Below are positions 18,937-54,613 of a stretch of 64,000 nucleotides of DNA, in pieces; within the stretch, counting starts at the first letter, position 1; every line of letters begins with the position of its first letter. Origin of the DNA: a virus; IMG/VR virus record IMGVR_UViG_3300042558_003617, positions 1-64,000 of that record; one strand, 5' to 3'. The notes under the pieces were generated by a model. It did no database searches. It was not told where the DNA came from and saw only the letters and a program-made list of their open reading frames with translations. The position numbers and the translations under genes were made by a program.

Positions 18937-20195
18937 TGACATACAATTACAACTCAACAGATCTAGTACATGCCACAGAGCTGACCGAGCGTGAGGAATT
19001 TTTATTAAAAGATTCAAAAACGTTTTGTATCTATCCTTGGATACACTTACACGCATACCCCACAGGCGAAGCATATCCTTGCTGTCATGCTGAAATGAAG
19101 CCGGGTGTGGTAGGCAACTGTAGAACCAACACACTTGAGGAAATCTGGCGCGGCAAACCCATGCAAAAGCTACGTGCAGATATGTTAAGCGAAACGCCCA
19201 ATGCTGCCTGCACACGTTGCTACGAGCAAGAAGAATCGGGGTTCTTTAGTGGCCGTAAGAGCGCCAATAAACATCACGGGCATCAGATCAAGAAGTTGGA
19301 AGACAACCCGTTTGAAATGACTTACTGGGACATTCGTTTCAGCAACTTGTGTAACCTAAGTTGCCGTAGCTGTGGCCATATCTTTAGTTCAAGCTGGTAT
19401 CAAGATCAAGCCAAGTTAGCTGGCGGAGATTGGAAAGCACAAAACAAAGTATTAAACTACGCAGGCCGCACAGAAACAGACATGTGGACTCAATTGATTC
19501 CCCATTTAGACTATGTGGAACAAATATACTTTGCCGGGGGTGAACCATTATTAATGGAAGAACACTACAATATCCTGGAAGAACTGGTTCGACGTGGGCG
19601 CACAGATGTCAGACTGATATACAACACAAACTTCACACATACAGACCTTAAAGGTCGCAGTGTATTTGAATACTGGAAGCAATTTAAATCAGTTGCAGTG
19701 GGTGCCAGCCTGGACGACATGGGCTCACGCGGTGAATACATACGTAAAGGCACAGACTGGGGTGTGGTGCGCCAGAACCGTATAGATATGTTGGCCACAT
19801 GTCCCGACGTGGATTTTTACATCTCGCCTACACTAAGCATCATGAATGCAATGCATCTGTCAGAGTTTCATCGTGCTTGGGTAGACCAAGGATTGATTCG
19901 CGCACAAGATCTCAATGTAAACATACTACAAGATCCACAGCACTACAGGATTGATATTGCTCCGTTGAAATACAAAGCACAGTTACACGCAAAGTGGACA
20001 CAGCATCTAGAATGGCTTCGTCCCCAGGATCGCCTGGGTCGTGCCACCCAAGGATTTGAGTCAGCTATTACGTTTATGAACGCAACAGATAATACTCATT
20101 TAATTGATACATTCTGGCGCAAAACACATGAGCTAGATACCATTAGAAAAGAAAACATTCTAGATGTGATCCCAGAATTAAAGGCCCTAAAATGA
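18936..20195 (+). CDS. Radical SAM enzyme (N-terminal twitch-like domain)
   Basis: CIYPW...PCC...CTRC, then CNLSCRSC, AGGEPL. Confidence 0.9.
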   Translation: MTYNYNSTDLVHATELTEREEFLLKDSKTFCIYPWIHLHAYPTGEAYPCCHAEMKPGVVGNCRTNTLEEIWRGKPMQKLRADMLSETPNAACTRCYEQEESGFFSGRKSANKHHGHQIKKLEDNPFEMTYWDIRFSNLCNLSCRSCGHIFSSSWYQDQAKLAGGDWKAQNKVLNYAGRTETDMWTQLIPHLDYVEQIYFAGGEPLLMEEHYNILEELVRRGRTDVRLIYNTNFTHTDLKGRSVFEYWKQFKSVAVGASLDDMGSRGEYIRKGTDWGVVRQNRIDMLATCPDVDFYISPTLSIMNAMHLSEFHRAWVDQGLIRAQDLNVNILQDPQHYRIDIAPLKYKAQLHAKWTQHLEWLRPQDRLGRATQGFESAITFMNATDNTHLIDTFWRKTHELDTIRKENILDVIPELKALK

Positions 20196-21400
20196 ACCTG
20201 CCTCATGAGAAGTTTTGTGTATTGCCCTGGGTCAGTCTGGAAGCCAGTCCCATAGGAACTGTGCGTCCTTGCTGTCTAGCTGATGATGAGCTGGTGGATG
20301 ATGCTGGTCAAAAGTTCTCATTGTTAACTGCTGACTTTGCCTCTGTGCAAAATTCCAAATCAATGCAATCTCTGCGTGAACAATTCCTTCAGGGGCAACA
20401 GCCCAAAACATGCCGCAAGTGCTGGAACGAGGAAGATGCTGGCCGCACCAGCAAACGCATGCACACCCTGGACAGACTCAAACACATGGGCATTGATACA
20501 GACTGGACAGCACATGCCAAGCCCCTGATGTTCTTGGATTTAAAACTAGGCAACATTTGCAATTTAAAATGCCGTATATGTGGATCGTGGAGTAGCAGTC
20601 AATTTGCCACAGAAGAACTGAGCTTTTTGCCACGTGAGGAACAAAAGCAGTCATTTCATTATCAGATGCTACGTGCCGGGGCTTGGCCTAGGGACAACAA
20701 GAATTTTTGGCAGGAAATTGATTCAATATTGAGTCAGATCAAATATATTGAATTCACCGGTGGCGAGCCATTTATGATTCAGGAACATTTTGACATGTTG
20801 CAAGGCATGGTGGATCGTGGCATTGCTGGCAACGTGGAAATACATTACAACACAAATGGAACACAATTCCCAGATCAAGCACCGTCAATTTGGAAACATT
20901 TTAAAACTGTGGAAATTGCCATCAGCATCGACGATGTAGGGTCAAGATTTGAATATCAACGCACCAACGCCAGTTGGCCCAAGGTAGTAGATAATCTTGA
21001 TCGTTTTCGGGCGTTAAGGACTCAAATGCCCAACCTACAGTTGCAATGCTGTAGTACTGTGAATATCTTTAATGTGTGCTATCTTGAAGACACTGCATTG
21101 TGGATCAGCCTACAGGACTTTGACTTTGTGTACTGGAATATCATGCATGATGCTTGGTATTTTAGTGTGGCTGCTTTGCCTGCACATGCCAAGCTAGAAA
21201 TCACACAGTACCTACAACAAGCCAGTACAGAATATCGTGCTGACTTTGATGGAATCATTGATTTTATGAATCAAGGAACCAGCACTTCGGGTGAGAGAAT
21301 CTGCGCAGAAATACGCCAATTGGATCAACGTCGTGACACTGATTTAAAATGGGCCATACCCAAATTGTCGCAATTGCTGAATTATGTCAAAAACATCTAG
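20192..21400 (+). CDS. Radical SAM enzyme (N-terminal twitch-like domain)
   Basis: CVLPW...PCC...CRKC, then CNLKCRIC, TGGEPF. Confidence 0.9.
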   Translation: MNLPHEKFCVLPWVSLEASPIGTVRPCCLADDELVDDAGQKFSLLTADFASVQNSKSMQSLREQFLQGQQPKTCRKCWNEEDAGRTSKRMHTLDRLKHMGIDTDWTAHAKPLMFLDLKLGNICNLKCRICGSWSSSQFATEELSFLPREEQKQSFHYQMLRAGAWPRDNKNFWQEIDSILSQIKYIEFTGGEPFMIQEHFDMLQGMVDRGIAGNVEIHYNTNGTQFPDQAPSIWKHFKTVEIAISIDDVGSRFEYQRTNASWPKVVDNLDRFRALRTQMPNLQLQCCSTVNIFNVCYLEDTALWISLQDFDFVYWNIMHDAWYFSVAALPAHAKLEITQYLQQASTEYRADFDGIIDFMNQGTSTSGERICAEIRQLDQRRDTDLKWAIPKLSQLLNYVKNI

Positions 21401-25323: not shown

Positions 25324-25550
25324 TAGAAACACACAAACGAACAATAACAAGAATGCTCACATATAGATTGACCGCTTGGTCATTTACAATATTGTGGACC
25401 TATATGTTTACTGGAAATATTGCCAGTGCCACAGGATTTGCAACAGCATTGCATATACTGTTAAGCATTGACTATTATATCCATGAACGCATTTGGCTAA
25501 AAATCAAATGGGGTCTTAAAGATACCGTTCAAGCCCGCCCCGACGCCTGA
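25314..25550 (+). CDS. Small membrane protein, DUF2061-like
   Basis: 'ETHKRTI...TYR...YYIHERIW.KIKWG'. Confidence 0.7.
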   Translation: MQLVETHKRTITRMLTYRLTAWSFTILWTYMFTGNIASATGFATALHILLSIDYYIHERIWLKIKWGLKDTVQARPDA

Positions 25551-40802: not shown

Positions 40803-41122
40803 AGAGTTTCTGTTACGAGGTATGTCTTACCCTAAGCTGAGTTTAGGCAGCTAATGCGAACTGTGAGTCGTTTGCGTTTACTTTGTTTTGCTTCTTCGAC
40901 CGAGTTACCCCAATCCTACGGCTTCTACATTGCCGGACTGTCCATTTCAATACTCTTGACCCAATCGATCCTGTGTCAGGCCCATCATAAAAAGATTGCT
41001 ACTATTACTATGAAAATTAATATTGCTAACAATGATGGTAATCTCACGTAATCTCCTTATGGTGGACCTGGCGGGCACTGCCCCCGCGTCTTGAATCCTT
41101 TTCTGTCTACTTCATACAGTCT
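40803..41122 (-). ncRNA. ssrA: Permuted (two-piece) tmRNA; tag peptide ANDSQFALAA
   Basis: Acceptor piece ends ...CAGGTCCACCA (41060) and precedes the coding piece starting GGGCCTG (40983); G3.U70 pair; tag ORF 40875..40843; outer ends approximate. Confidence 0.92.
40985..41047 (-). CDS. 20-aa hydrophobic peptide encoded inside the tmRNA intervening segment
   Basis: AAGGAG + 5 nt + GTG; MRLPSLLAILIFIVIVAIFL*. Confidence 0.45.
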   Translation of the reverse strand: MRLPSLLAILIFIVIVAIFL

Positions 41123-43726: not shown

Positions 43727-44359
43727 TTATGTCTGTATGGAGTGGTCGGTATCTATTAAATTTTTATAACGTTGCCTAAAGTCGGCAAACGTGGGGTTGG
43801 TATCAAGCAGTAGAGAAAACAAATAGCGTTCAGTTATGATATTCTCCACGCTGTGATAGTGTTGCACATCATAAGCATGCCATTGATGTAACGGAATCAC
43901 AGTTTTAAAATCCACAGTCACATCCTTGTGGTAGATGTTGGCAGCACTGGAAAGATCGGGATTGGGTCGCGATTCTTTGTAAAATACTGTGCGAACATCC
44001 GGACCGCCAAGCTCTAGCAAATAGTTTATGGCAACATATCTTGCACGATCACAATGTGGTGGACTTTGACTGGGAACCGACAATACATTTTTAATTTTAC
44101 CAACCACTGCGGATACAACTGTGTTTGGAAAAAATTTCTGATAAACTGCTCTAATTTGATTTTGTATTTCGGCAGACAGTACAGTGTCTTTGGTGCCGTA
44201 TTCGTGTGCAGCCACAGGGATTTCGTTGCGATGAAAATTGTCGACCCAGATCCTGTGTTCTTCAAACAAGGGGATTTGTTGGCAACAGTTGATCAACTGG
44301 GTTGCCAACGCTGTCGGCGGCGCAGGCAAATTTAAAAAAGCTACTTTAAGTGTCGACAT
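43727..44359 (-). CDS. Hypothetical protein, possible 2OG-Fe(II)/cupin oxygenase
   Basis: 'PHCD...AINY...YHSV...R' HxD...H pattern. Confidence 0.55.
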   Translation of the reverse strand: MSTLKVAFLNLPAPPTALATQLINCCQQIPLFEEHRIWVDNFHRNEIPVAAHEYGTKDTVLSAEIQNQIRAVYQKFFPNTVVSAVVGKIKNVLSVPSQSPPHCDRARYVAINYLLELGGPDVRTVFYKESRPNPDLSSAANIYHKDVTVDFKTVIPLHQWHAYDVQHYHSVENIITERYLFSLLLDTNPTFADFRQRYKNLIDTDHSIQT

Positions 44360-44378
44360 TGTGTTATCTTACTTATAC

Positions 44379-44462
44379 TGGTGCGAGTGGCCGGAGTCGA
44401 ACCGGCACGCCCTAAGACGGGAGATTTTAAGTCTCCTGTGGCTACCATTACACCACACTCGC
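44379..44462 (-). tRNA. tRNA-Leu(TAA)
   Basis: Cloverleaf, long variable arm, encoded CCA. Confidence 0.92.
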
Positions 44463-44469
44463 ATTAATC

Positions 44470-44551
44470 TGGTACCCCAACCCGGACTCGAACCGGGACG
44501 CCGAAGCAGTAGATTTTGAGTCTACCGTGTCTACCATTCCACCATCGGGGC
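44470..44551 (-). tRNA. tRNA-Leu(CAA)
   Basis: Cloverleaf, long variable arm, CCA. Confidence 0.92.
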
Positions 44552-44553
44552 GT

Positions 44554-44982
44554 CTAAAAGTCTGCGGTAACAGGCTTCAAATCTTCCACATCAGCTAGTC
44601 CGTCTTGGTTGTAACTGATGGATCCTCCGTAATAACCATTGTGGCTGTTACGAACTTCTAAATCTATATATCCACGATCTGTGCGGATGGTCACAAATGC
44701 GTCATCGACGCACTCGTGTTCATCTTCGAGATCTTGTCTTTCAAAATCTTTTGACTCTACAGCCAACACTGTTGCACCACGCAGGATATCAAAAGAGTTG
44801 CCACTGCCCAGTACAGAGTCTACACCATTAACATGGTTGAACCACACAGAATTGCAACAATCATTTGCAGTGTCAAATCGATAGTGATTTCCGTTGATGT
44901 CGCGAAATACCAATGTCCATGCATCGTTGCCTATGAACATTCCGTTTATCTTTTTATTAACTAACACACTAAAGCACGACAT
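44554..44982 (-). CDS. Hypothetical phage protein
   Basis: 'DCC...WF' and 'SHNGYYG' motifs; likely start MSCFS. Confidence 0.7.
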   Translation of the reverse strand: MSCFSVLVNKKINGMFIGNDAWTLVFRDINGNHYRFDTANDCCNSVWFNHVNGVDSVLGSGNSFDILRGATVLAVESKDFERQDLEDEHECVDDAFVTIRTDRGYIDLEVRNSHNGYYGGSISYNQDGLADVEDLKPVTADF

Positions 44983-45217
44983 CGCTAATCCTTTCTTTTT
45001 TAACGCGGCCAATTCGGCTTGATTTGTCCCAGTCGTAAGCAACACCGTCTGGACACACACCGTCTTTGACAGCGTCAACACCAAACACCCCGCATACTTC
45101 GAAGTCTGCTCCTGCAATGGTTACAAATACTCCAACAGTTTTGGCAAAGCTCATGGCCTCGTCCAAAGTTGCACATACGTTTAATGTTAGGTTATTTTTG
45201 CTGATTACTTTGTACAT
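44969..45217 (-). CDS. Hypothetical protein
   Basis: 82 aa, directly after a TTGACC-17-TATAAT promoter (45224-45252). Confidence 0.7.
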   Translation of the reverse strand: MYKVISKNNLTLNVCATLDEAMSFAKTVGVFVTIAGADFEVCGVFGVDAVKDGVCPDGVAYDWDKSSRIGRVKKERISDVVL

Positions 45218-45262
45218 GCATCAATTATACTACATTGTTGATTTTTGGTCAACCATAAAAAA

Positions 45263-45393
45263 GCAAACATACTGATTTCGCTAGGGCGTGTGTGAGATAT
45301 CAGCATCTCTATGGGTCTTGCACCCGATCACCTGGTCCACTGGATTGTATCAAGCGCCAATGGTAGGTATACCCCTACACGTCTAATGTTTGC
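45263..45393 (-). ncRNA. Candidate structured RNA
   Basis: GCAAACAT/ATGTTTGC closing stem enclosing 3-4 hairpins, directly 3' of tRNA-Val. Confidence 0.5.
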
Positions 45394-45398
45394 AAAAC

Positions 45399-45472
45399 TG
45401 GTAGGTCATAACGGTAACGATCCGCTGTATGTGCAATGTCAATGCACCGCTCTACCTTTGAGCTAATGACCT
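45399..45472 (-). tRNA. tRNA-Val(GAC), A54/U58 T-loop
   Basis: Cloverleaf, CCA; T-loop ATCGTTA. Confidence 0.85.
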
Positions 45473-45481
45473 AAATATTCA

Positions 45482-45982
45482 TCAACTGCTTTCGTGAGTG
45501 TCAGTACCGCGTGGATCGTTTTCATCCGGTTGGTACAGATATGGACGATGTTTGATTTCTTCTTGTTCATCGTAAGTCCAACCCAGTGCCTTCATCATGC
45601 GATGTTTGACCAACAAGTTGGGACTGCGAAACACCTCAGTATCATCAAAGCCCAGCATGACACCAACTTCGCACACTGCACCACTACGGCAAACACCCGC
45701 CACACAGTGAACAACCACATTCATGTGATTGTCCTTTGCATGTTGCAATAGTCGAACAAGCTCGTTGGCCTGCTCTTGACTGCACCGCATGGCTTCGTCT
45801 AATGCAAAATCATTTTCTTCAATGTCTAAGAATTCAAATTGATGAACTTGCTTGAACTTGTACAAGGGTGTGGGAAAGTCACCAGGTGGATCCACAATTT
45901 GAATCAGCATAGCGTTCTCACCGGGATTGATATGAAATCCCCGGGCAATGTCGCTTTTGGCTACGTTTTGAATCCACGGCAT
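45482..45982 (-). CDS. Cys-based (tyrosine/dual-specificity) phosphatase-like protein
   Basis: HCVAGVCRS = HCx5R P-loop. Confidence 0.85.
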   Translation of the reverse strand: MPWIQNVAKSDIARGFHINPGENAMLIQIVDPPGDFPTPLYKFKQVHQFEFLDIEENDFALDEAMRCSQEQANELVRLLQHAKDNHMNVVVHCVAGVCRSGAVCEVGVMLGFDDTEVFRSPNLLVKHRMMKALGWTYDEQEEIKHRPYLYQPDENDPRGTDTHESS

Positions 45983-45999
45983 GGTGCACTCCTTTTGAT

Positions 46000-46074
46000 T
46001 GGTACCCTAGCGTGGGAACGATCCACGGACCTACGCCTTATCAAGACGGCGCTCTACCACTGAGCTACTAGGGC
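46000..46074 (-). tRNA. tRNA-Ile(GAT), A54/U58 T-loop
   Basis: Cloverleaf, CCA. Confidence 0.87.
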
Positions 46075-46080
46075 AATAAA

Positions 46081-46155
46081 TGGTACCTGGACACGGTTTC
46101 GAACCGCGGACCCTCTCCGTGTAAAGGAGACGCTCTACCCCTGAGCTATCCAGGC
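46081..46155 (-). tRNA. tRNA-Val(TAC)
   Basis: Cloverleaf, CCA. Confidence 0.92.
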
Positions 46156-46166
46156 AAAATCTCAAC

Positions 46167-46242
46167 TGGGGTGTCACACGGGGAACGATCCCGTACTACC
46201 AGTTTCACAGACTAGTGTGCGAACCTCTACACTAGTGACACC
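46167..46242 (-). tRNA. tRNA-His(GTG), A54/U58 T-loop
   Basis: Cloverleaf with G-1:C73 pair, CCA. Confidence 0.87.
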
Positions 46243-46249
46243 ATAGAAC

Positions 46250-46558
46250 TTATTCCAACTCTGTTGGCGGCAAAATACCATTGCTATGTCGATCTGTAGA
46301 TTTTTCTACATCTTGAAACAATCTCTTTTCTTGAGTTGTTAGTTTATCTTTGTGTGTTTTCCTAGGATTACCACACAAATAACATTCAGGGTTACCACAA
46401 TCCATGGCGTGATGTTTTGCTAATCGATGAGGCTCTTGTATGGCTTTATCTTTGTCAGTTAACCCATGTGCTTTGGCAATCTTGACTTGCTTGTTTACAG
46501 CATTTTCATCTTTTTGAATACGCTTCGAACGTTTGAATTTATCTGACTCACTGTTCAT
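46250..46558 (-). CDS. Basic hypothetical protein with a Cys/His cluster
   Basis: 'HHAMDCGNPECYLCGNPR'. Confidence 0.7.
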   Translation of the reverse strand: MNSESDKFKRSKRIQKDENAVNKQVKIAKAHGLTDKDKAIQEPHRLAKHHAMDCGNPECYLCGNPRKTHKDKLTTQEKRLFQDVEKSTDRHSNGILPPTELE

Positions 46559-47081
46559 GCCATGATCCATCTTTGTGTTTTTCAATTGCCAACCTCAGAG
46601 CCTGCTCAACATATTGGTTAAACGTGATATCCAAGTCATGCGCCGCCTTCATGTATTTTAGCAAATCCTCGTCGGAAAAATCAACTGGCATTTGTACTCG
46701 AGTATCGTAAACCTCGCCAGCTACAATAGCTAGACCCTTTTGGATCCACTCATCGTCAACTTCAAGATTGATATACTCAACATCGTCCCAGGCTTGATTA
46801 CCTAATTCTCCGCGGTCAACGGATTCATCGGCATGTGCTTGAGTGTACTCAGAATTGATAATACGATATGCACGATTGTTAGTGTAGTCACAAACATCAA
46901 CTTCGTAGACCTCCTGAGTCTTTGTATCAAACACAATATTGGCACTCCAGCCGCCGGCGCCGTGAATACCATTCCACGCACTCAGGCTATATGCATCATC
47001 ACCAAAACAACTCCAGCCGTAGTCGCTACCCTCGGTAACACGATAATTCACTACTTCCATGAATTCTTTAAAAGTAATCAT
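46548..47081 (-). CDS. Hypothetical protein
   Basis: Start MITFK after an AAGGA SD and a sigma70 promoter (about 47121-47149). Confidence 0.7.
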   Translation of the reverse strand: MITFKEFMEVVNYRVTEGSDYGWSCFGDDAYSLSAWNGIHGAGGWSANIVFDTKTQEVYEVDVCDYTNNRAYRIINSEYTQAHADESVDRGELGNQAWDDVEYINLEVDDEWIQKGLAIVAGEVYDTRVQMPVDFSDEDLLKYMKAAHDLDITFNQYVEQALRLAIEKHKDGSWHEQ

Positions 47082-47173
47082 TTCAATTCCTTGGTTTAAA
47101 TTACTGTCTCTGCATGTAAAATTATACACTAACTGCAATTTGTTGTCAATGCATTTGTTTTGCCAGTTATGAT

Positions 47174-47249
47174 TGGTACCGCTGAAGGGAATCGAACCCC
47201 TATCCCGACGTTCGTAGCATCGTATTCTTATCCATTGAACTACAGCGAT
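47174..47249 (-). tRNA. tRNA-Arg(ACG)
   Basis: Cloverleaf, CCA. Confidence 0.9.
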
Positions 47250-47255
47250 ATAAAT

Positions 47256-47332
47256 TGGTCGGTGTGACACGATTCGAACATGCGACCACTGCGTCCCAAA
47301 CGCAGAGCTCTACCAGACTGAGCTACACACCG
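47256..47332 (-). tRNA. tRNA-Pro(TGG)
   Basis: Cloverleaf, CCA. Confidence 0.9.
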
Positions 47333-47333
47333 A

Positions 47334-47486
47334 TTAACTTGCTACAATTTTTGGAATGTATGGCACTGCTCTAGGACCACCATACAGTTGTTCAAAAAGT
47401 CGTTTAGCCTCTTGCGGGGTGTCCGCATAGATACGCTTCTTTTCTTCACCTTGTGGTGTTCTTACAGTTGTTTCATACATTGGCAT
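47334..47486 (-). CDS. Small 50-aa protein (not in ORF track)
   Basis: MPMYETTVRTPQGEEKKRIYADTPQEAKRLFEQLYGG...; AAGGA SD. Confidence 0.65.
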   Translation of the reverse strand: MPMYETTVRTPQGEEKKRIYADTPQEAKRLFEQLYGGPRAVPYIPKIVAS

Positions 47487-47500
47487 ATTGTATCCTTGAA

Positions 47501-47574
47501 TGGAGCGGGGTGCGAGAATCGAACTCGCAACTCTAACTTGGAAGGATAGCGTTTTGCCACTAAACTAACCCCGC
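47501..47574 (-). tRNA. tRNA-Gly(TCC)
   Basis: Cloverleaf, CCA. Confidence 0.9.
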
Positions 47575-47582
47575 TTGGTTTT

Positions 47583-47656
47583 TGGTGCCCCATGACAGAA
47601 TCGAACTGCCGTAACCTGATTACAAAACAGGTGTAATACCATTATACTAATAGGGC
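47583..47656 (-). tRNA. tRNA-Thr(TGT)
   Basis: Cloverleaf, CCA. Confidence 0.9.
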
Positions 47657-47673
47657 ATCTTTACTATATATCC

Positions 47674-47748
47674 TGGTAGTGATAAGTGGGAATGATCCAC
47701 TCTCCTCGCCTTATGAGGGCGGTACGCATCCATCTACGTCATATCACC
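47674..47748 (-). tRNA. tRNA with CAT anticodon (Met or Ile2), A54/U58 T-loop
   Basis: Cloverleaf, CCA; T-loop ATCATTC. Confidence 0.8.
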
Positions 47749-47847
47749 ATATAGAAACACACTAACGAACCTGGCTGTGGGGATCGAACCCACTAAATCC
47801 CGTAGCACCAGCAGTACTGCTACGATACTGGTTAATGTGTTTTTATA
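47749..47847 (-). ncRNA. Stem-enclosed RNA cassette with a tRNA-like T-arm
   Basis: ATAAAAACACATTAAC/GTTAGTGTGTTTCTAT stem; internal GTGGG-TTCGATC-CCCAC. Confidence 0.55.
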
Positions 47848-47925
47848 TGGTAGGGGCACAGGGATTCGAACCCTGACCTGGCAGATTAAAAGTCTGCTGT
47901 GCTAAACCGTTAACACTATACCCCC
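47848..47925 (-). tRNA. tRNA-Lys(TTT)
   Basis: Cloverleaf, CCA. Confidence 0.9.
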
Positions 47926-47928
47926 ATA

Positions 47929-48005
47929 TGGTCCCTCCACTGAGATTCGAACTCAGACTTCTCGGATTAAGAGTCCGGTATGCTAACCAGTAACATCTTG
48001 AAGGG
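47929..48005 (-). tRNA. tRNA-Lys(CTT)
   Basis: Cloverleaf, CCA. Confidence 0.88.
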
Positions 48006-48114
48006 ATGGATCGTAAAGAATTGTCTTTTACGTGCCATCCAGGACCATACGGGGGTCTAGGATGACACTATCGTTTCGCTGAACGTTTCATGTCATTTTC
48101 CTTAGTAAAAACAT

Positions 48115-48143
48115 ATTATACGACAAATGTCATTTGTTGTCAA
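48115..48143 (-). promoter_or_regulatory. Consensus sigma70 promoter
   Basis: TTGACA-17-TATAAT. Confidence 0.88.
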
Positions 48144-48151
48144 GTCATTTG

Positions 48152-48229
48152 TGGCTGAGGATCTAGGATTCGAACCTAGGAATGCCGGAATCAAAATCCG
48201 GTGCCTTGGACCAACTTGGCGAATCCCCA
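48152..48229 (-). tRNA. tRNA-Gln(TTG)
   Basis: Cloverleaf, CCA. Confidence 0.9.
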
Positions 48230-48235
48230 ACAAAA

Positions 48236-48670
48236 CTACAGGTACTCGTAGTTTACTGTGTCTGTGTTGGTACGGTAAACCTTGGCACCATTTTTGATAT
48301 GGAACCTACGGGCCATCTCAGTGGGCGGACTCAGTGTAACAAACCGTTGAATACCTGGCTTGTTTTTTTGAATCCAGTCTCTTGCTTCAAAGATCAAGTC
48401 TCGTCCTGCTCCTGCTTCGTAGCTCCAAATGGTGTAGAAAACCACAACAATTGGCTCTTGGGAAGGAGTAAACAATTGGCTTTCACTTTCGGGCACAATT
48501 GACTGGTAGCTCACGCAAGTGATTGCGCGGGCAGTTGAGTCATTTTTGCGAGCAACAAAAATGTCTCTGTTTTCACCAACTCTTGAAGAAGTTGGTATGT
48601 GTGGGCGCACAGGATCTTGTGCAATAAACTCAAGAAATGAGTCAGCGGCTGATTTAATTAGATGTAACAT
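48236..48670 (-). CDS. Hypothetical protein (possible GNAT-like fold)
   Basis: 'FYTIWSY..GAGR.LI...A.RFH.KNGA' resembles GNAT motifs A/B. Confidence 0.55.
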   Translation of the reverse strand: MLHLIKSAADSFLEFIAQDPVRPHIPTSSRVGENRDIFVARKNDSTARAITCVSYQSIVPESESQLFTPSQEPIVVVFYTIWSYEAGAGRDLIFEARDWIQKNKPGIQRFVTLSPPTEMARRFHIKNGAKVYRTNTDTVNYEYL

Positions 48671-48748
48671 AATATCCTTATATATCTATTTTTGTATTAC
48701 AATAACATTAAACTCAGCATGGGCTCGGCTACAGCATAAGTATTCTTG

Positions 48749-49180
48749 ATGCTAATTTCCCTAACAATCAATCCCACCCAAGTTTGTCAAGACATCAAAA
48801 TTGATGTATCCTTAAATGGTCATTTGTTGTCTACCTTGGTTTGTGACCAAAAATGGACTTTTGAACATGAACTTGATGAAAGTGATATTTCACAAGACCA
48901 TGTGTTAACTGTGACCATGCATGGCAAAAATCAAACGCACACAGTGGTTGACAGCAACAACCTCATAGTCTCGGACTGCACAGTACTCGTTGAACATATA
49001 ACATTTGATGGCATAGATATTACTGATCTCTATGCAAAAGGTAAAAAATGCTACACTCACGATTTCAACGGAACACAGCCTGAGTTTACAGACGAATTCT
49101 ACGGAATCATGGGCTGCAACGGCACAGTAACAATTGATTTTTATACTCCAATTCACATTTGGTTATTGGAGAATTGTTAA
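48749..49180 (+). CDS. Hypothetical protein
   Basis: TAAGTA 6 nt upstream; coupled to the radical SAM gene. Confidence 0.65.
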   Translation: MLISLTINPTQVCQDIKIDVSLNGHLLSTLVCDQKWTFEHELDESDISQDHVLTVTMHGKNQTHTVVDSNNLIVSDCTVLVEHITFDGIDITDLYAKGKKCYTHDFNGTQPEFTDEFYGIMGCNGTVTIDFYTPIHIWLLENC

Positions 49181-50157
49181 TGATTGTTGCTGAACAAGTG
49201 ACCGGAGTTGTAGTAGAAGCTACATCGCATTGCAATTTGCATTGCCCACAGTGTCCTAGATACGATCAGGAAGGATTCTTAAACAAGTTTCTAGTGCCTG
49301 ACCATTTGGACTTTGAAGCATTTGAACAAAACTTTGTACTGTCTCAGTTGCCAAACCTCAAACACATTGTGTTTGAAGGCGACTACGGTGATATCATGAT
49401 GCATCCACGTGCCGAAAGCTTTTTTAGGCACTGCTCAAGTGTGGAGTCAATTGTTGCATACACCAACGGTAGCATGCGATCCACAACCTGGTGGGCAAAT
49501 CTTGCAACCATTCCCAACTTGACAGTTGTTTTTTCAATTGACGGATTAGCTGACACCAATGCAACATACAGAATCAATGCTGATTTTGATAAAATCATGC
49601 GCAACGCCCGGGCATACATCAATGCAGGCGGTCGTGCCACGTGGAAATTTCTTGTGTTCAAACACAATCAGCACCAAGTGGCGCAAGCACAAGAACTTGC
49701 CGCTAGCATGGGGTTTGCTGATTTTCAAACACAATCAACCAATAGAAACTTTTGGGATAATCCAATTTGGCCGGTAAAGATCAACGGTGAGTACTCACAC
49801 GATATTGAAATGAGTGACACAGCTGATTCTACTCGTACCAAGGATTATATTGTGGCGCTTGACAAAGTCAAACAACAACAATTTACCAAACCATCTTGTT
49901 CCTGGATCAACAGTGGTAGAATTTACATAAACCACAAAGGGCATGTGATTCCTTGTTGCATGACCAGTGGCTTGTCTTGGCAACGCGATATATCTGCACA
50001 GTTGTGGCAGCGCATTATACAGCATGTGGATTCAATTGATATCAATCAGCACAACATTGCTGACATATTAACAAGTGACTTCTTTGTGCATAATCTAGCA
50101 ACATCGCTGTCCAGCGCCAAGACAGTACATCCAACCTGTTTGTCTCAATGTTCATAA
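49180..50157 (+). CDS. Radical SAM enzyme with a C-terminal SPASM/twitch domain
   Basis: CNLHCPQC, 'TNGS', 'FSIDG', C...G.V.PCC...C...C. Confidence 0.88.
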   Translation: MIVAEQVTGVVVEATSHCNLHCPQCPRYDQEGFLNKFLVPDHLDFEAFEQNFVLSQLPNLKHIVFEGDYGDIMMHPRAESFFRHCSSVESIVAYTNGSMRSTTWWANLATIPNLTVVFSIDGLADTNATYRINADFDKIMRNARAYINAGGRATWKFLVFKHNQHQVAQAQELAASMGFADFQTQSTNRNFWDNPIWPVKINGEYSHDIEMSDTADSTRTKDYIVALDKVKQQQFTKPSCSWINSGRIYINHKGHVIPCCMTSGLSWQRDISAQLWQRIIQHVDSIDINQHNIADILTSDFFVHNLATSLSSAKTVHPTCLSQCS

Positions 50158-50232
50158 TGGCCCGGCGTAGAGGAATCGAACCCCTATAATGACTTTAGAA
50201 GAATCATGTCCTATCCGTTGAACGAACGCCGG
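50158..50232 (-). tRNA. tRNA-Arg(TCT)
   Basis: Cloverleaf, CCA. Confidence 0.88.
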
Positions 50233-50238
50233 AGTATT

Positions 50239-50314
50239 TGGTCTCCCTACAAGGATTCGAACCTTGACCACACGGCCCCAAACCGTGTACGCAACCAGAT
50301 AACGCTTTAGAGAG
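50239..50314 (-). tRNA. tRNA-Pro(TGG)
   Basis: Cloverleaf, CCA. Confidence 0.87.
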
Positions 50315-50321
50315 ATAAACT

Positions 50322-50396
50322 TGGTGGAGACCGTCGGTATCGAACCGATCTAGACACGAATCTTGCAAGGATCCGCCGTAGCCCTCTACTGCCCCC
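50322..50396 (-). tRNA. Atypical tRNA-Ala(TGC) with a minimal D-arm
   Basis: G3.U70, TGC anticodon loop, TTCGA T-loop, CCA; D-arm is only GTAG-AGGG-CTAC. Confidence 0.65.
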
Positions 50397-50479
50397 ATTA
50401 TAGAAACACACTTAAACAGTCCTTCAACGTTAGTCGCTATCTCCCTTACTATCGGGCGGATCTGTATGTGTTTCTATAA
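50397..50479 (-). ncRNA. Stem-enclosed RNA cassette
   Basis: TTATAGAAACACA/TGTGTTTCTATAA stem exactly filling the inter-tRNA gap. Confidence 0.55.
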
Positions 50480-50558
50480 TGGCTCCGCATCTGGGTAACG
50501 ATCCCAGCTAATCATTGATTAACAGTCAAGCCCATGCACCATGCTCGGGTTCTGCGGA
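50480..50558 (-). tRNA. tRNA-Asn(GTT), A54/U58 T-loop, atypical D-arm
   Basis: Cloverleaf, CCA. Confidence 0.8.
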
Positions 50559-50567
50559 ATAAAATTT

Positions 50568-50657
50568 TGGCGGAACGACTCGGACTCGAACCGAGAACCC
50601 GGATTACGCCGAGCGACAGATTAGCAATCTGCTCTAATACCATTATAGGACCGTTCC
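50568..50657 (-). tRNA. tRNA-Ser(GCT)
   Basis: Long variable arm, G73, CCA. Confidence 0.9.
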
Positions 50658-50670
50658 AAAACTTACAAAA

Positions 50671-50745
50671 TGGCTGGCCTTGAGAGGATCGAACTCCCAC
50701 CCCTTGTTTCGAAGACAAGGATGATATCCATTTCACCAAAGGCCA
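50671..50745 (-). tRNA. tRNA-Arg(TCG)
   Basis: Cloverleaf, CCA. Confidence 0.88.
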
Positions 50746-50750
50746 AAAAC

Positions 50751-50824
50751 TGGTGCTCTCACCAGGTAACGATCCTGGGTTGCTACATTACCAATGTAGT
50801 GTAATGCCTTTATACTATGAGAGC
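50751..50824 (-). tRNA. tRNA-Thr(GGT), A54/U58 T-loop
   Basis: Cloverleaf, CCA. Confidence 0.87.
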
Positions 50825-50832
50825 AATAAAAC

Positions 50833-50906
50833 TGGTGCGGGGTAAGAGAATCGAACTCTTGCTTAAACGTTGGCAACGTCTGGTTCTACCATTAAACTAA
50901 CCACGC
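50833..50906 (-). tRNA. tRNA-Gly(GCC)
   Basis: Cloverleaf, CCA. Confidence 0.88.
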
Positions 50907-50930
50907 ATTTGCTATTTGCAAATAGCAAAT
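50907..50930. repeat. Perfect 24-bp palindrome
   Basis: ATTTGCTATTTG|CAAATAGCAAAT. Confidence 0.9.
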
Positions 50931-50935
50931 AAAAT

Positions 50936-51011
50936 TGGCTCCACAGCCTGGGCTCGAACCAGGGACCAAAAGATTAACAGTCTTCTACTCTACCAACTGA
51001 GCTACTGCGGA
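50936..51011 (-). tRNA. tRNA-Asn(GTT)
   Basis: Canonical cloverleaf, CCA. Confidence 0.92.
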
Positions 51012-51020
51012 ATAAAAATT

Positions 51021-51097
51021 TGGAGTAGGTGACAAGGATCGAACTTGCATAAAACGGATTTGCAATCCGCGGCCTAACCATTCAGCGACACACCTAC
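51021..51097 (-). tRNA. tRNA-Cys(GCA)
   Basis: Cloverleaf, U73, CCA. Confidence 0.87.
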
Positions 51098-51099
51098 AT

Positions 51100-51320
51100 A
51101 TTGCTCTGCATCCCCCGGCGGTAATTGTAGTACATCAGAAATTTGGTCAGCAAGTTTTCACTCACCAATTAGTTTTTCATCACACGTACCTTCCACCCGC
51201 TTCCCGACAGGGACCGTTATCGCATTGCTAGCGGCCTTTGGGTTCGAAGACTACCACCCGTACTTGTCACAGTACTTCTCATCGTGTGGGTCACACTATC
51301 CGGAGACACCCGGAACGTTC
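51100..51320 (-). ncRNA. Candidate ~220-nt structured RNA
   Basis: GC-richer gap between tRNA-Tyr and tRNA-Cys with several hairpins and no credible ORF. Confidence 0.5.
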
Positions 51321-51409
51321 TGGTGGAGATGATAGGATTCGAACCTATTGCGTTTCTTAAGTACCGGATTTACAGTCCGGGGCCACTCCACCATCGTAGC
51401 CGCATCTCC
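51321..51409 (-). tRNA. tRNA-Tyr(GTA)
   Basis: Long variable region, CCA. Confidence 0.87.
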
Positions 51410-51413
51410 AAAG

Positions 51414-51488
51414 TGGTACTGGGTACGGGAATCGAACCCGTCTTACAAACGTGAAAGGCTTGTGTCCTAACCGATAGACGAACCCAGC
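51414..51488 (-). tRNA. tRNA-Glu(TTC)
   Basis: Cloverleaf, CCA. Confidence 0.9.
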
Positions 51489-51616
51489 GTAAAGAAAAAC
51501 CCTGAAGTAGTCCAGTCAAGCAACCAAACAGGGCCGTGTTAAAAAGAGAAACTGCTGTTGCAGGACCTAGTGCCTCAATGAGGGAAGTATCCAGGCGATG
51601 CAGTTTCAAAAATGAA

Positions 51617-51826
51617 TTTGAGAGTAGTGCCACCCTGTTATAGGCACCATTCACCCGATTTAACAAGTCCGGACGGGGTTCGGTACGTCACTTGGGATTC
51701 ATCCAGCGTGGTAACCATGCTACACCGATCTTCCGATCAGCCGGGAGTCGAACCCGCTTGCCTTCTATTACTCAGTACCTTCGAAGAATACTGCATAACG
51801 TGACTTCACTTGCTGACACTCTCAAA
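51617..51826 (-). ncRNA. Candidate ~210-nt multi-branched RNA with an internal T-arm
   Basis: TTTGAGAGT/ACTCTCAAA closing stem; CGGG-TTCGACT-CCCG; several hairpins. Confidence 0.55.
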
Positions 51827-51829
51827 ACT

Positions 51830-51905
51830 TGGCGGTCTTAGGGGGTAACGATCCCCACTCTTACGGCGTGACAAGCCGTCGTGCGTCCATGAACACTTTA
51901 AGACC
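51830..51905 (-). tRNA. tRNA-Asp(GTC), A54/U58 T-loop
   Basis: Cloverleaf, G73, CCA. Confidence 0.87.
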
Positions 51906-51907
51906 AA

Positions 51908-52125
51908 CTATATTAAAAAATACTAAAGGAACCATTGTGCATCTATGTCTACCTATACGACCGTCTCGTATAGGCCTGCACGGTCATTACTGCCTACATG
52001 CTCCGCCGCTTTTCTGAGCATTACTGCTCGGCTTCATGAACTCTGACTATTGAGCGTGGGCGGCCCCACTGTCCTCGCACAAAGTTCCTAACGGTGTAGG
52101 TAACCTTTAATACATTTTAATATAG
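51908..52125 (-). ncRNA. Candidate ~218-nt multi-branched RNA
   Basis: ~20-bp interrupted closing stem CTATATTAAAA..TATTAAAGG/CCTTTAGTA..TTTTAATATAG; CCTATACGA/TCGTATAGG hairpin. Confidence 0.55.
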
Positions 52126-52158
52126 CAACCCTTGCGGGTTACTACAAGAAAACTCGAC

Positions 52159-52322
52159 TTTTTAAAGAACATCTAGTTAATTTCTAACTAGTCTCTAGTA
52201 TAACACGATGTGCAATACCAGTCAATCTGTTTTGCAAAGTCCCTACAACTTCTAGGGTTTTTGCAACATCAGTTAATTTCTTAACTTGTTTCTATTGTAG
52301 CAAAAATACGTTTACCGGTCAA
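52159..52322 (-). promoter_or_regulatory. Tandem sigma70 promoters followed by a hairpin and a boxA-like element
   Basis: TTGACC-17-TACAAT (52322-52294); TTGACT-17-TATACT (52225-52197); CTAGTTA-GAAAT-TAACTAG; TGTTCTTTAAAAA. Confidence 0.7.
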
Positions 52323-52378
52323 GTGAATTTTTGTTGTATTTTCACAACACTACCGGGGCCGCCCCTATAAGTATAGGC

Positions 52379-53266
52379 ATGACCAATCAAATACAACTTT
52401 CGACCAAGCACGGTCAGGTCCTGGTCGAACTACTTGACACTGAGTTTGTTCACTTCTGGAAAACTCATTATGATCAAATGGTTGATTGTTACAGCCTAAC
52501 ACCTAGACACGTGCCCTGGCCCAATTATCAGCCCTGCAGCCACGAAACTGTTGACACACTAATTGATCGCATTTTGAACGTGATCAAAACAATTAACTCC
52601 AGCAGTTACCTATGCCCGTTACCGGAAATTGTAACCAAAGATCAATTGAGTAGATTGGATTTGAGCACACAACAATTGCTCAATCGATTACACAGATATG
52701 CAGTAGTAGCTACAGAATTTGGAAATCGATGGCATCACAACGGGCAGGAAGAATTTAACCCTGTACCCTATACCAACGATGAATTCATGTACAACATCAA
52801 TGTGTTAAATCAAAGCATTCATTACCTTGAAGAATATGTAATAACACCACACAAACAAGAATTCTTGCGACAAGTACAAACAGTAGAGTTTGTTTTTGAG
52901 TCATCTAAATACCAAGATGTTGACGTTTTTCTAGATGGATCAGCTGTTGCAATCCCTGACGAAATGCAACAGCATCTCAGATTGTCGGGGTATGATGTGT
53001 GGATCAAAAAAGATCTACTGGGAAAAGACTTTATAACTGCATTTGCAGATCATGATGACCCTGCACAATTTGACATACGTCCACCGCCTACAATCAGTGG
53101 CGGTATCGCAATTGATCTTGACCAAGGTAGGGACAACCTATTTGACAGTCCTTTATTTGCTGCCTGGCTCGGACAATCTCCCAATGATACACATGGTAGC
53201 TATCCATTGGGCAAAGTCATTTCTGGTAAAGAAAACTTATTAAAATTCAGCAGACGTTTCTGGTAG
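52379..53266 (+). CDS. Hypothetical protein (distant paralogue of 22663..23751)
   Basis: TAAGTA 5 nt upstream; LNRLHRY, LNQSIHYLE, LGKDF..AF.D. Confidence 0.7.
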   Translation: MTNQIQLSTKHGQVLVELLDTEFVHFWKTHYDQMVDCYSLTPRHVPWPNYQPCSHETVDTLIDRILNVIKTINSSSYLCPLPEIVTKDQLSRLDLSTQQLLNRLHRYAVVATEFGNRWHHNGQEEFNPVPYTNDEFMYNINVLNQSIHYLEEYVITPHKQEFLRQVQTVEFVFESSKYQDVDVFLDGSAVAIPDEMQQHLRLSGYDVWIKKDLLGKDFITAFADHDDPAQFDIRPPPTISGGIAIDLDQGRDNLFDSPLFAAWLGQSPNDTHGSYPLGKVISGKENLLKFSRRFW

Positions 53267-53334
53267 CTCCACCGGGTAACGATCCCAGGACTGCCGGTTA
53301 TCAGCCGACTGTTATTCCATTTAACTACAGAGCT
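53261..53334 (-). tRNA. tRNA-Ile(GAT), A54/U58 T-loop
   Basis: Cloverleaf, CCA. Confidence 0.87.
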
Positions 53335-53342
53335 ATTCAATT

Positions 53343-53416
53343 TGGCACGGGTACTAGGGCTCGAACCTAGAATGACAGAGTCAAAGTCTGTAGTGTTACC
53401 ATTACACTATACCCGA
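53343..53416 (-). tRNA. tRNA-Gln(TTG)
   Basis: Cloverleaf, CCA. Confidence 0.9.
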
Positions 53417-53423
53417 ACAATCT

Positions 53424-53515
53424 TGGCGGAAAGCAGAGGAGTCGAACCCCATCCCATTTCTGAGAACCTGGTTTTCAAGGCCAGTCGCAGGACCATCCCC
53501 GCTGCATTACTTTCC
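53424..53515 (-). tRNA. tRNA-Ser(TGA), enlarged D-arm
   Basis: Long variable arm, G73, CCA. Confidence 0.83.
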
Positions 53516-53524
53516 ATTAACTAT

Positions 53525-53599
53525 TGGTGCCCCAGGATGGAATCGAACCACCACACCCTGCTTACAAAACAGGACCTCTACCACTAAGGATACAAGGGC
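53525..53599 (-). tRNA. tRNA-Thr(TGT)
   Basis: Cloverleaf, CCA. Confidence 0.88.
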
Positions 53600-53605
53600 A
53601 AAAAT

Positions 53606-53679
53606 TGGCGTACCCACTAGGACTCGAACCTAGACTGACGGTTTTGGAGACCGCGATGCTGCCATTACACTATGGATAC
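53606..53679 (-). tRNA. tRNA-Trp(CCA)
   Basis: Cloverleaf, CCA. Confidence 0.9.
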
Positions 53680-53688
53680 ATTAACATA

Positions 53689-53763
53689 TGGTGGACCGTA
53701 ACGGGATCGAACCGTTCCTTAAGGCTTGCAAAGCCCTCGTGCCCCCAACAACACTTACAGCCC
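53689..53763 (-). tRNA. tRNA-Ala(TGC)
   Basis: G3.U70, cloverleaf, CCA. Confidence 0.87.
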
Positions 53764-53764
53764 A

Positions 53765-53829
53765 TACATTCTAAAACACACCATCTGCGGTATTGCAACC
53801 CAGATCAGCTTGGTGTATTTTAGAATGTA
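53765..53829 (-). ncRNA. Stem-enclosed RNA cassette
   Basis: 19-bp stem TACATTCTAAAATACACCA/TGGTGTGTTTTAGAATGTA abutting the tRNA-Ala 5' end. Confidence 0.5.
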
Positions 53830-53979
53830 GTGTGTTTCCACACCACATGATAGGGTCAATACCCTACCCAGGAGTCTTACTGTCTGTGTTACCGCCACAG
53901 AGTTCATGTGTCCTGTCCGCCCGTTTGCTTGTTTTTTTGAGTGCTTTAGCGGGACCTCGTTTCCCAATAGCACTAAGTG

Positions 53980-54012
53980 AAAAACCCTGGAGTTTTTAAT
54001 TCCAGGGTCTTT
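53980..54012 (-). terminator. Intrinsic terminator (putative attenuator) upstream of the tRNA array
   Basis: AAAGACCCTGGA-loop-TCCAGGGTTTTT. Confidence 0.75.
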
Positions 54013-54034
54013 GAATTTGTAGATGTTAACTTAG

Positions 54035-54166
54035 TTAATCATCCCATCCTTCAATAGACCCCGGTACTCCTGGAATACTATTCACATGATCATAGCCGCG
54101 TGACCAGGCTGTTGTCGCCTGTGTCAACATGGGTTTGGATCTTGTTAAAGTATTTGTTTTCATCAT
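54035..54166 (-). CDS. Putative 43-aa leader peptide (not in ORF track)
   Basis: MMKTNTLTRSKPMLTQATTAWSRGYDHVNSIPGVPGSIEGWDD*; starts at the predicted +1 of the promoter. Confidence 0.5.
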   Translation of the reverse strand: MMKTNTLTRSKPMLTQATTAWSRGYDHVNSIPGVPGSIEGWDD

Positions 54167-54172
54167 GTACCT

Positions 54173-54280
54173 ATTATAGTTTATTTATGATTGCCTGTCA
54201 ACCACTAAATTTATGTTTTATTTAGTCCAGTTGATTGGTATTCATTCAAGTATTATACAACAAAAAGCTTTCTTGGTCAA
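54173..54280 (-). promoter_or_regulatory. Tandem sigma70 promoters heading the tRNA array
   Basis: TTGACC-17-TATAAT (54280-54252) and TTGACA-17-TATAAT (54201-54173). Confidence 0.85.
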
Positions 54281-54337
54281 GGGGGTATTTTGCCAGAATC
54301 ATGTAAATACAACAACACAACATAGAAATGGAAACAC

Positions 54338-54613
54338 ATGGACTTTTTAAAAATTGTTGCCGAGCTTGGCTTTCCTATTGCGGCTGCATGCGGTGCAGGC
54401 TACTTTGTGTTCCTGACCTTGAAGTTTATTCTTGCAGGCGTGACTAGCAGTGTGAATGGCATGGGCGGAATCATCAAGGGACTGGACAGCAGAGTTGATA
54501 CCATGACCAACCAATTGCAACGTATCGACGTCAAGGTTAGTCATGCACTGGGGCTACAGCCTGACTATGATCGCATAAGCAGAGCAGAGCAAATAGATCA
54601 AAGGAAAGATTAA
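54338..54613 (+). CDS. Small membrane protein, YvrJ/holin-like
   Basis: 'LGFPIAA' N-terminal TM segment followed by a coiled coil. Confidence 0.55.
   Translation: MDFLKIVAELGFPIAAACGAGYFVFLTLKFILAGVTSSVNGMGGIIKGLDSRVDTMTNQLQRIDVKVSHALGLQPDYDRISRAEQIDQRKD

Follow-up and report, generated by a model that had tools for sequence, protein, structure and literature searches.

Besides transfer RNAs (tRNAs), the tRNA region of phage T4 encodes RNAC and RNAD (species 1 and 2 RNAs), whose roles are reported to be unknown (PMC3014915). Here we describe RNA elements from a comparable setting. Our subject is a 64,000-nt stretch of DNA (the window), positions 1 to 64,000 of the IMG/VR virus record IMGVR_UViG_3300042558_003617, a 72-kb record with an estimated completeness of ~21%. 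Between its tRNA genes lie hairpin elements, here called cassettes, in which a shared A/U-rich stem (the handle) closes around an insert that differs from one element to the next. Like RNAC and RNAD, the cassettes are small non-tRNA RNAs inside a phage tRNA cluster and run in the same orientation as the tRNAs. Two features set them apart: the first two cassettes of the window, A and B, have no match in 50,697 GenBank phage records, and whereas T4 has two fixed RNAs, the cassettes combine one shared stem with more than 120 interchangeable inserts.

Four other systems share some of this design. RNase III processing stems flank the 16S and 23S ribosomal RNAs, and phage T7 early mRNAs carry signals such as R1.1. 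Like these, the cassette stem forms ~20 bp of double-stranded RNA (dsRNA) from both flanks of a stable RNA, has an internal imperfection and occurs in several related copies per phage transcript set. It differs in that it takes in the CCA of a tRNA, its sequence is conserved far beyond the known needs of RNase III, its insert can be almost nothing and its cleavage is predicted. Bacterial miniature inverted-repeat transposable elements (MITEs) whose transcripts form hairpins, such as Correia/NEMIS of Neisseria and ERIC, share the terminal inverted repeats, TA-type flanks, small size and RNA hairpin, whereas the cassettes are low-copy, sit in a single array in fixed orientation and hold unrelated inserts. 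The TMERs of murine gammaherpesvirus 68 are tRNA-linked precursor microRNA hairpins freed by cellular tRNA 3'-end processing. They too join a viral tRNA-like gene to hairpins directly after it, but they belong to a eukaryotic virus, depend on RNase Z and the microRNA pathway and have no fixed shared stem with variable inserts. Finally, integron attC sites are imperfect palindromes of similar length with a variable centre and serve cassette exchange. They act as DNA with an integrase and contain extrahelical bases, whereas the signal in the cassettes is specific to one RNA strand and no integrase is linked to them, none having been searched for.

None of these five systems joins a single fixed stem to more than 120 inserts within the bounds of phage tRNA arrays. 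A search of full-text literature, with supplementary files outside its scope, found no description of such a hairpin family.

A family of handle-closed cassettes

Cassettes A, B and C are minus-strand hairpins, in the same sense as the tRNAs, with stems of one family. The array around them contains 28 tRNA genes called by ARAGORN, all on the minus strand and spanning 44379-53763, and two more added by Rfam, which adjoin cassette A. The upstream one is a tRNA-Lys with anticodon loop CUUUUAA (UUU) at 47851-47925 (minus strand; Rfam tRNA, 61.4 bits; missed by ARAGORN), and the downstream one has the anticodon CAU (47677-47748, minus strand; 41.5 bits). Cassette A spans 47747-47850. Its 5' arm (47834-47850) starts with the CCA of tRNA-Lys (47848-47850), so that 47847 is the first base past it; the insert occupies 47764-47833, and the last bases of the 3' arm (47747-47763) are G+1 and G+2 of the next tRNA, whose start is 47748.

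Cassette B (50395-50482, minus strand) has arms at 50467-50482 and 50395-50410 that pair perfectly over 16 bp, in a handle variant with one extra U-A rung. It begins directly past the CCA of a tRNA-Asn(GUU)-like gene (50480-50560, minus strand; homologues at 29 loci) and ends at G+1 of a tRNA-Ala(UGC)-like gene with a 4-nt D loop (50322-50396, minus strand; homologues at 27 loci). Both genes were recognized by sequence reading and folding and are uncalled by ARAGORN or at the Rfam gathering score; a homologue of the Asn-like gene in locus L089 is called Asn-gtt by ARAGORN. Cassette C (53765-53829, minus strand) has arms at 53811-53829 and 53765-53783, a 27-nt insert and a second handle type, AUUCUAAAA-ACA...UGUGUUUUAGAAU. 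It ends one base short of +1 of tRNA-Ala, and its upstream neighbour is a conserved leader RNA that is not a tRNA.

The closing stem is 100% complementary over 16 nt in B and 95% over 19 nt in C, compared with 86% over 22 nt in a larger element, D, described below. Folded in the tRNA sense, A, B and C have z scores of -4.9, -7.1 and -8.1, and none of 200 shuffles folded as well. An earlier note, made from the sequence of this stretch, had claimed that related A/U-rich stems close these three gaps and that A and B start directly past the upstream CCA and end at the next tRNA's +1. Both claims stand: the stems form one handle family that reaches far beyond the window, and the flanks of B are tRNA-like genes.

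The motif TAGAAACACAC, allowing up to 2 mismatches, matches the window 42 times against 27.4 ± 4.5 in shuffled sequence, and 0 of 100 shuffles reach 42. A structural scan of the window recovers A, B and C together with one weak match at 20112-20232; we judged that match, and an exact motif at 25324, to be chance. The Rfam search that the earlier note had called for yielded no credible catalogued family, either at the gathering score or with E-values up to 5, for A, B, C, D or two further elements, E and G. The best scores on these elements (TLS-PK4, 18 bits; sRNA71, 26 bits; GP20-b, 18 bits) are at chance level.

Several familiar identities were also considered. The insert of A contains the T-arm GUGGG-UUCGAUC-CCCAC, but neither ARAGORN nor the Rfam tRNA model (RF00005, E up to 5) calls a tRNA within 47749-47847. 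For Y RNA or YrlA, Ro-binding RNAs that have a tRNA-like module, there was no Rfam match (E up to 5), and the 72-kb record, at ~21% completeness, contains no TROVE domain. Nor are the cassettes intrinsic terminators: among the terminator-like sites listed for 44000-54500 none falls on A, B or C, and their 3' arms pass directly into the next tRNA.

The wider family emerged from pattern searches. An exact two-arm pattern derived from A and B matched at least 119 viral contigs, and a looser scan, allowing up to 4 substitutions per 17-nt arm, gave 431 matches against 0 on reversed sequence. A structural scan that fixed a 7-nt core per arm and required 8 of 10 further pairs returned 648 raw matches over all sequence scanned, compared with 31 from controls of reversed or complemented sequence. 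After reduction, 340 places remained at 155 uncultured-phage loci (1 to 7 per locus), with 288 unique sequences; for 334 of the 340 the nearest tRNA gave the orientation, with no use made of the arms. In each of five related records, which measure 160-238 kb and include a complete one, the 1-3 cassettes lie within a few kb of one another.

In bacterial and archaeal genomes (596 Gb), the exact two-arm pattern matched 100 times at 74 loci, and only 2 of these have the flanks. These two are full cassettes on short contigs binned as freshwater metagenome-assembled genomes (L128, 652-718; L157, 48-136; labels Planktophila and Polynucleobacter); both are probably phage fragments and not host copies. 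A 7-kb query against the GenBank phage collection produced tRNA matches only. Judged from these searches, members of the family occur only in tRNA gene arrays of uncultured phages, and neither bacterial genomes nor GenBank phages contain a credible one. A, B and C belong to this uncatalogued group of handle-closed RNA cassettes.

A conserved stem with interchangeable inserts

In the tRNA sense, the handle consensus reads N73-CCA-UAUAAAAACACAUU, insert, AGUGUGUUUCUAUAUGG, and we number its base pairs as rungs. The helix opens at the CCA of the RNA before it and closes on the initial bases of the tRNA that follows. The CCA occupies rungs 2-4 in 199 of the 288 unique elements. In the first set of 131 elements, a same-strand ARAGORN tRNA ends exactly 2 nt before the UAAAAACACA core in 94, at one single distance, and only one element has an opposite-strand tRNA as its neighbour. 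Pairing is nearly universal at rungs 2-18 of the unique elements and is accompanied by compensatory changes: rung 3 is CG in 221 and UA in 32, rung 7 is UA in 239, CG in 23 and GC in 13, and rung 8 is AU in 183, UA in 75 and GC in 19. Rung 19 is paired in 237 of 288. The two positions inward of it are paired in 57 and 46 of 105 elements of the first set, falling towards chance, and the helix is therefore of set length, 18-19 rungs. Further AUA/UAU flanks are present in 105 of 110 unique elements.

Two rungs depart from standard pairing. Rung 9 is non-standard in 187 of 288 elements (A.C in 149, C.A in 15, U.U in 14), and the mismatch is kept while adjoining rungs change, for example in loci L002, L202 and L234. 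Its persistence in the form of other mismatches suggests a wanted imperfection. Rung 17, near the top of the helix, is U.G in 178 elements, C-G in 64 and U-A in 42. The second handle type, seen in cassette C, reads AUUCUAAAACAYAC...GURUGUUUUAGAAU; its 5' arm occurs in 19 of the 288.

With orientation taken from the nearest tRNA, at the remaining rungs G.U or U.G pairs outnumber A.C or C.A pairs by 100 to 33 (p = 5e-9), and rung 17 adds 178 to 0. Because of this bias and the compensatory changes, the evidence points to a stem selected as a helix in the tRNA-sense RNA; the A.C rung by itself would favour the opposite strand.

The inserts, in contrast to the fixed stem, are highly varied. Measured between the rung-19 positions of the 288 unique elements, they span 2 to 133 nt (median 49), and reach ~175 nt if D is included. 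One clustering gives 131 insert families among 225 elements and another gives 123 among 334. A 6-mer search of the 142 non-redundant inserts left by a stricter filter found no common motif beyond weak T-loop-like words, and a T-loop-like motif is present in 7 of the 142. Shared 10-mers did not discriminate inserts as tRNA fragments, since 247 of 283 inserts have them against 229 when shuffled.

Two insert families could be followed in detail. Those of A and B were gathered by insert patterns, and the later scan fixed just the 7-nt core. Family A, from an insert-only pattern, comprises 7 loci, one of them partial, besides the window, with 7 unique full-length sequences. The insert consists of the T-arm, a 5-bp hairpin and a 4-bp helix and is ~90% or more identical throughout, whereas the arms vary; those of locus L207 differ at ~7 rungs, all compensated. 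On the proposed structure 96.7% of cells are paired and 5 pairs are changed on both sides, values that 0-1 of 500 shuffles reach. One two-sided change, A-U to G-C in the CAGUA/UACUG hairpin, lies inside the insert.

The core of B occurs 36 times outside the window (23 unique sequences), and in 34 of these the closing helix has at least 14 pairs. Again the insert is ~90% or more conserved across contexts while the arms vary, and its invariant core reads ACAG.UCCGCCC...GGGAGAYAGCG...CGYUGAAGGACUGUUUAA. Bases of the hairpin loop can pair with a segment further downstream, and this complementarity takes five versions (TAGT:ACTA, CTAG:CTAG, CTGG:CCAG, CGG:CCG and GTCC:GGAC). Because this pairing covaries, B is a hairpin with a pseudoknot and not the three-way junction described in the earlier note, which is the shape of the minimum-energy fold. 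The broader idea of that note, unrelated structured cargo in shared stems, gains support from the conservation and compensatory changes of the A and B inserts elsewhere. Other insert families, read by eye, contain compensated hairpins.

C-type cassettes were read in 12 regions, where inserts run from 7 nt (L238) to ~100 nt and include a T-arm in L204. The insert of the C-type cassette in L033 belongs to an insert family found in type-1 handles elsewhere. A 50-aa frame that runs through the leader RNA and C is absent or shortened in several of the 12 homologous regions, and we rejected it as coding.

Where neighbouring tRNA-Lys genes are at least 97% identical, insert identity is nevertheless at random level (<0.6) in 56 of 62 pairs. 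Multi-member insert families stand behind more than one kind of tRNA in 15 of 52 cases (12 of 47 in an earlier clustering). The RNA ahead of a cassette need not be a tRNA: it may be of another kind, such as G-type RNAs and others that end in CCA, or a further cassette in tandem. By comparison of loci, cassettes are reassorted among tRNA junctions, the moving unit being the arms plus insert and sometimes the insert alone.

Most tRNA junctions lack a cassette, and those that have one are a biased sample. The upstream tRNA is Lys(UUU), Gln(UUG) or Glu(UUC) in 68 of 101 distinct combinations of insert family and tRNA, against a share of 13% for these three among the 1,985 tRNAs of those loci; the binomial p of ~1e-36 is overstated, as the combinations are not fully independent. 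These three tRNAs carry xm5s2U34 and include classic anticodon-nuclease targets.

Neighbouring elements and the array

Larger RNA elements of the window had been credited by the earlier note with the same terminal-stem design, and this proved true in part for one of them. Element D (51908-52125, minus strand) is a ~218-nt RNA with a 22-bp A/U-rich closing stem, the outer part of which resembles the handle. Its homologue in L103 has an AAACAUA/UAUGUUU core with U.U at the same rung as the handle mismatch, and membership of D among the handle cassettes is plausible. E and F have closing stems that lack the handle sequence. Element E (51617-51826, minus strand; BLAST homologues at 51 loci), a conserved RNA of ~210 nt, and element G (51098-51320, minus strand; 25 loci), a conserved RNA of ~220 nt, are separate families with closing stems different from the handle. 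A handle cassette directly follows the G homologue in L002 and L003, and the same upstream end occurs in L059. Element F (45263-45393, minus strand) has one weak homologue and an 8-bp closing stem, GCAAACAU/AUGUUUGC, ahead of a U run. The AAACA/UGUUU core is all that F shares with the handle, and it may be a terminator-like end.

The leader RNA ahead of C (53830-53985, minus strand) is conserved and structured, with BLAST homologues at 24 loci, 12 regions of which were read by eye. In related phages, too, it stands ahead of C-type cassettes. It contains a compensated CUGUG...CACAG hairpin and a hairpin with a GAAA loop. Further upstream on the minus strand lie a promoter site (54201-54173), a frame of ~40 codons and a hairpin with a U run (54008-53984).

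Sigma-70-like sites precede several of these units on the same strand. One, matching 12 of 12 consensus positions (48115-48143, minus strand), stands upstream of tRNA-Lys(CUU), tRNA-Lys(UUU) and cassette A. Two tandem sites of 10/12 each (52322-52294 and 52225-52197, within 52197-52322, minus strand) stand upstream of D, tRNAs, E, G and B, with D as the first unit past them. Further minus-strand sites lie at 47149-47121 and 54201-54173, scoring 12/12 or 10/12. All are consensus matches and not proof of promoters, their total in the window being no higher than in shuffles. Between the 12/12 site and tRNA-Lys(CUU) is a leader (48006-48105, minus strand; homologues at 57 loci) with a Shine-Dalgarno-like AAGGA, a 7-codon frame and hairpins.

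The array has other features of its own. At 53428-53515 (minus strand) is a Ser-UGA-like gene with a long arm that ARAGORN missed and that scores 34.7 bits, under the cut-off, with the tRNA-Sec model. Eight tRNA or tRNA-like genes have the T-arm GGAUCGUUAC, GGAUCGUUCC or GGAUCAUUCC, with A at loop position 1 and U at position 5 against the usual UUCGAAU (45414-45423, 46015-46024, 46182-46191, 47689-47698, 50495-50504, 50766-50775, 51845-51854 and 53276-53285, all minus strand). A perfect 24-nt palindrome (12 + 12, no spacer; 50907-50930), unrelated to the handle, separates tRNA-Gly(GCC) from tRNA-Asn. Outside the array, 40843-41121 (minus strand) encodes a transfer-messenger RNA (tmRNA) of the permuted, two-piece type (Rfam tmRNA_permuted, 106 bits), and the host may accordingly be one with a two-piece tmRNA.

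Between the minus-strand tRNA blocks lie plus-strand genes (48746-50157 and 52379-53266) for a radical-SAM/SPASM protein and for a protein of 295 aa. The 295-aa protein has no Pfam match, and its relatives were found inside the tRNA arrays of other phages. Searching by this neighbour led to just 8 loci, with a cassette only in L002 and L003 among the stretches examined; the search for relatives through the radical-SAM protein found none. All 19 runs holding at least half of the sampled words of 44400-54000 are labelled lake water metagenome.

What the stem may do

RNA-library data were available as assembled contigs of relatives, which give no starts, ends or strand and are uninformative for the parts they leave uncovered. 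Three metatranscriptome runs and a further, doubtful one yielded contigs over the tRNA and RNA modules, and the intervening protein genes are almost uncovered. One 81-nt contig bridges tRNA-Lys into cassette A (47794-47874).

We favour, at about even odds (a probability of roughly 0.5), a reading in which the stem serves both RNA processing and the protection of RNA ends. It would be cut by a host nuclease that is specific for double strands, of the RNase III kind, acting along with RNase P and 3' trimming. Cleavage by an RNase III-like enzyme close to the mismatch, which lies 10 rungs from the helix top, would yield three products: the upstream tRNA still bearing a short trailer, the following tRNA preceded by a short leader, and an end-paired small RNA that carries the insert. 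The tRNA array would thereby double as an expression site for varied small RNAs, and cassettes would be reassorted by recombination at their arms. In structure the stem resembles an RNase III processing stem, with 18-19 rungs of flanking dsRNA and a conserved mismatch at rung 9; the cleavage itself is predicted.

Several observations weigh against this. The five related records, one of them complete, contain no RNase III domain, and neither the window's record nor four of the five, all but one record being incomplete, contains a dsRNA-binding domain (dsRBD). The enzyme would therefore be the host's. RNase III, moreover, needs no fixed sequence, so host RNase III alone leaves the near-invariant arms unexplained. 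Part of the sample was found by exact arm patterns, which inflates the apparent conservation, and the conserved A.C rung would be G.U on the opposite strand. The RNA contigs could contain DNA or could match just the conserved tRNA-like sequence, and RNA ends are not visible in them. As for the cargo, inserts are shorter than 15 nt in 5 of 288 unique elements and overall fold barely better than shuffles (mean z -0.5, with 4% below -2). The tiny inserts and near-shuffle folding mean that the stem has a role of its own and that cargo is dispensable for the stem's task.

The near-fixed arm sequence keeps two alternatives live, a dedicated binding protein or concerted evolution by recombination. 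In the former, the handle would be the site of a sequence-specific phage or host protein that packages or escorts the cassette RNAs as a ribonucleoprotein, with nuclease processing secondary. Arms that are near-invariant beyond the needs of pairing, a fixed helix length and a mismatch rung kept even as U.U, C.A or C.C would all suit such a protein. However, many compensatory arm variants are tolerated, as in L207, and the records searched offer no candidate protein, with no dsRBD, RNase III or TROVE domain. We consider this explanation unlikely.

It is also improbable, in our view, that the stem alone matters. It would then act as a spacer or a timing hairpin, sequestering the CCA end and slowing or safeguarding how the preceding tRNA, mostly Lys, Gln or Glu, matures; the inserts would be tolerated filler or decaying remnants. 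The shortest inserts (2-15 nt), the overall folding near shuffle level, the random-level insert identity beside near-identical tRNA-Lys genes and the strong three-tRNA bias are what one would expect of such a hairpin. Against it stand the A and B inserts, conserved at ~90% or more across contexts while the arms vary, the compensated helices within inserts, and the cassettes that come after non-tRNA RNAs or after other cassettes.

Quite improbable is a selfish, MITE-like inverted-repeat DNA that inserts at CCA-TA-TGG tRNA junctions and duplicates TA. Terminal inverted repeats are indeed present and the same insert recurs behind different tRNAs. The flanks, CCA-TA...TA-TGG, are consistent with duplication of TA or ATAT at the palindromic empty junction CCATATGG, an example of which lies at 47926-47930 between the two tRNA-Lys genes; as rungs that pair within the stem they are explained just as well. 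Other expectations failed. Instead of many dispersed near-identical copies there are 1-3 clustered within a few kb per 160-238 kb record, with unrelated inserts within one locus, and instead of insertion in both orientations there is a ratio of 94 to 1, with arm asymmetries that follow the tRNA strand. Low copy number, fixed orientation and unrelated inserts per locus argue against an ordinary dispersed MITE, and the G.U bias indicates selection on RNA.

Very unlikely are DNA recombination sites like integron attC, folding as single-stranded DNA and shuffling tRNA and RNA modules between phages, since the imperfect palindrome of 60-170 nt with its variable centre, the strong reshuffling of modules around the elements and the one insert common to two handle types are set against arms that lack an attC-type R''/R' core (GTTRRRY), a single mismatch with no extrahelical bases, a G.U bias favouring one RNA strand, the many tRNA junctions that have no element and the lack of any integrase link, no integrase search having been made.

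If the processing and protection reading is taken further, the handle could be a universal socket. Lake phages would swap more than 120 small structured RNAs by arm recombination, mainly behind Lys(UUU), Gln(UUG) and Glu(UUC) tRNAs, and the released, end-protected RNAs would act as fast-evolving decoys or inhibitors against host defence or RNA-processing factors. Host anticodon nucleases are known to attack these tRNAs. We regard this extension as tentative and rather unlikely.

Phage tRNA arrays are now read mainly as sets of tRNAs for codon supply or anti-defence. The cassette family shows that such operons provide, in a large group of uncultured phages, a standardised slot as well: a single fixed stem accommodates many different small RNAs with structure. 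Should the stem prove to be a module for processing and protection, it would be a natural scaffold for RNA expression and a defined handle with which to fish out the partner nuclease or protein, and its inserts would make up a catalogue of more than 120 candidate phage effector RNAs, those of A and B included. The bias towards Lys, Gln and Glu junctions offers a testable link to tRNA modification or to tRNA-targeting defence.

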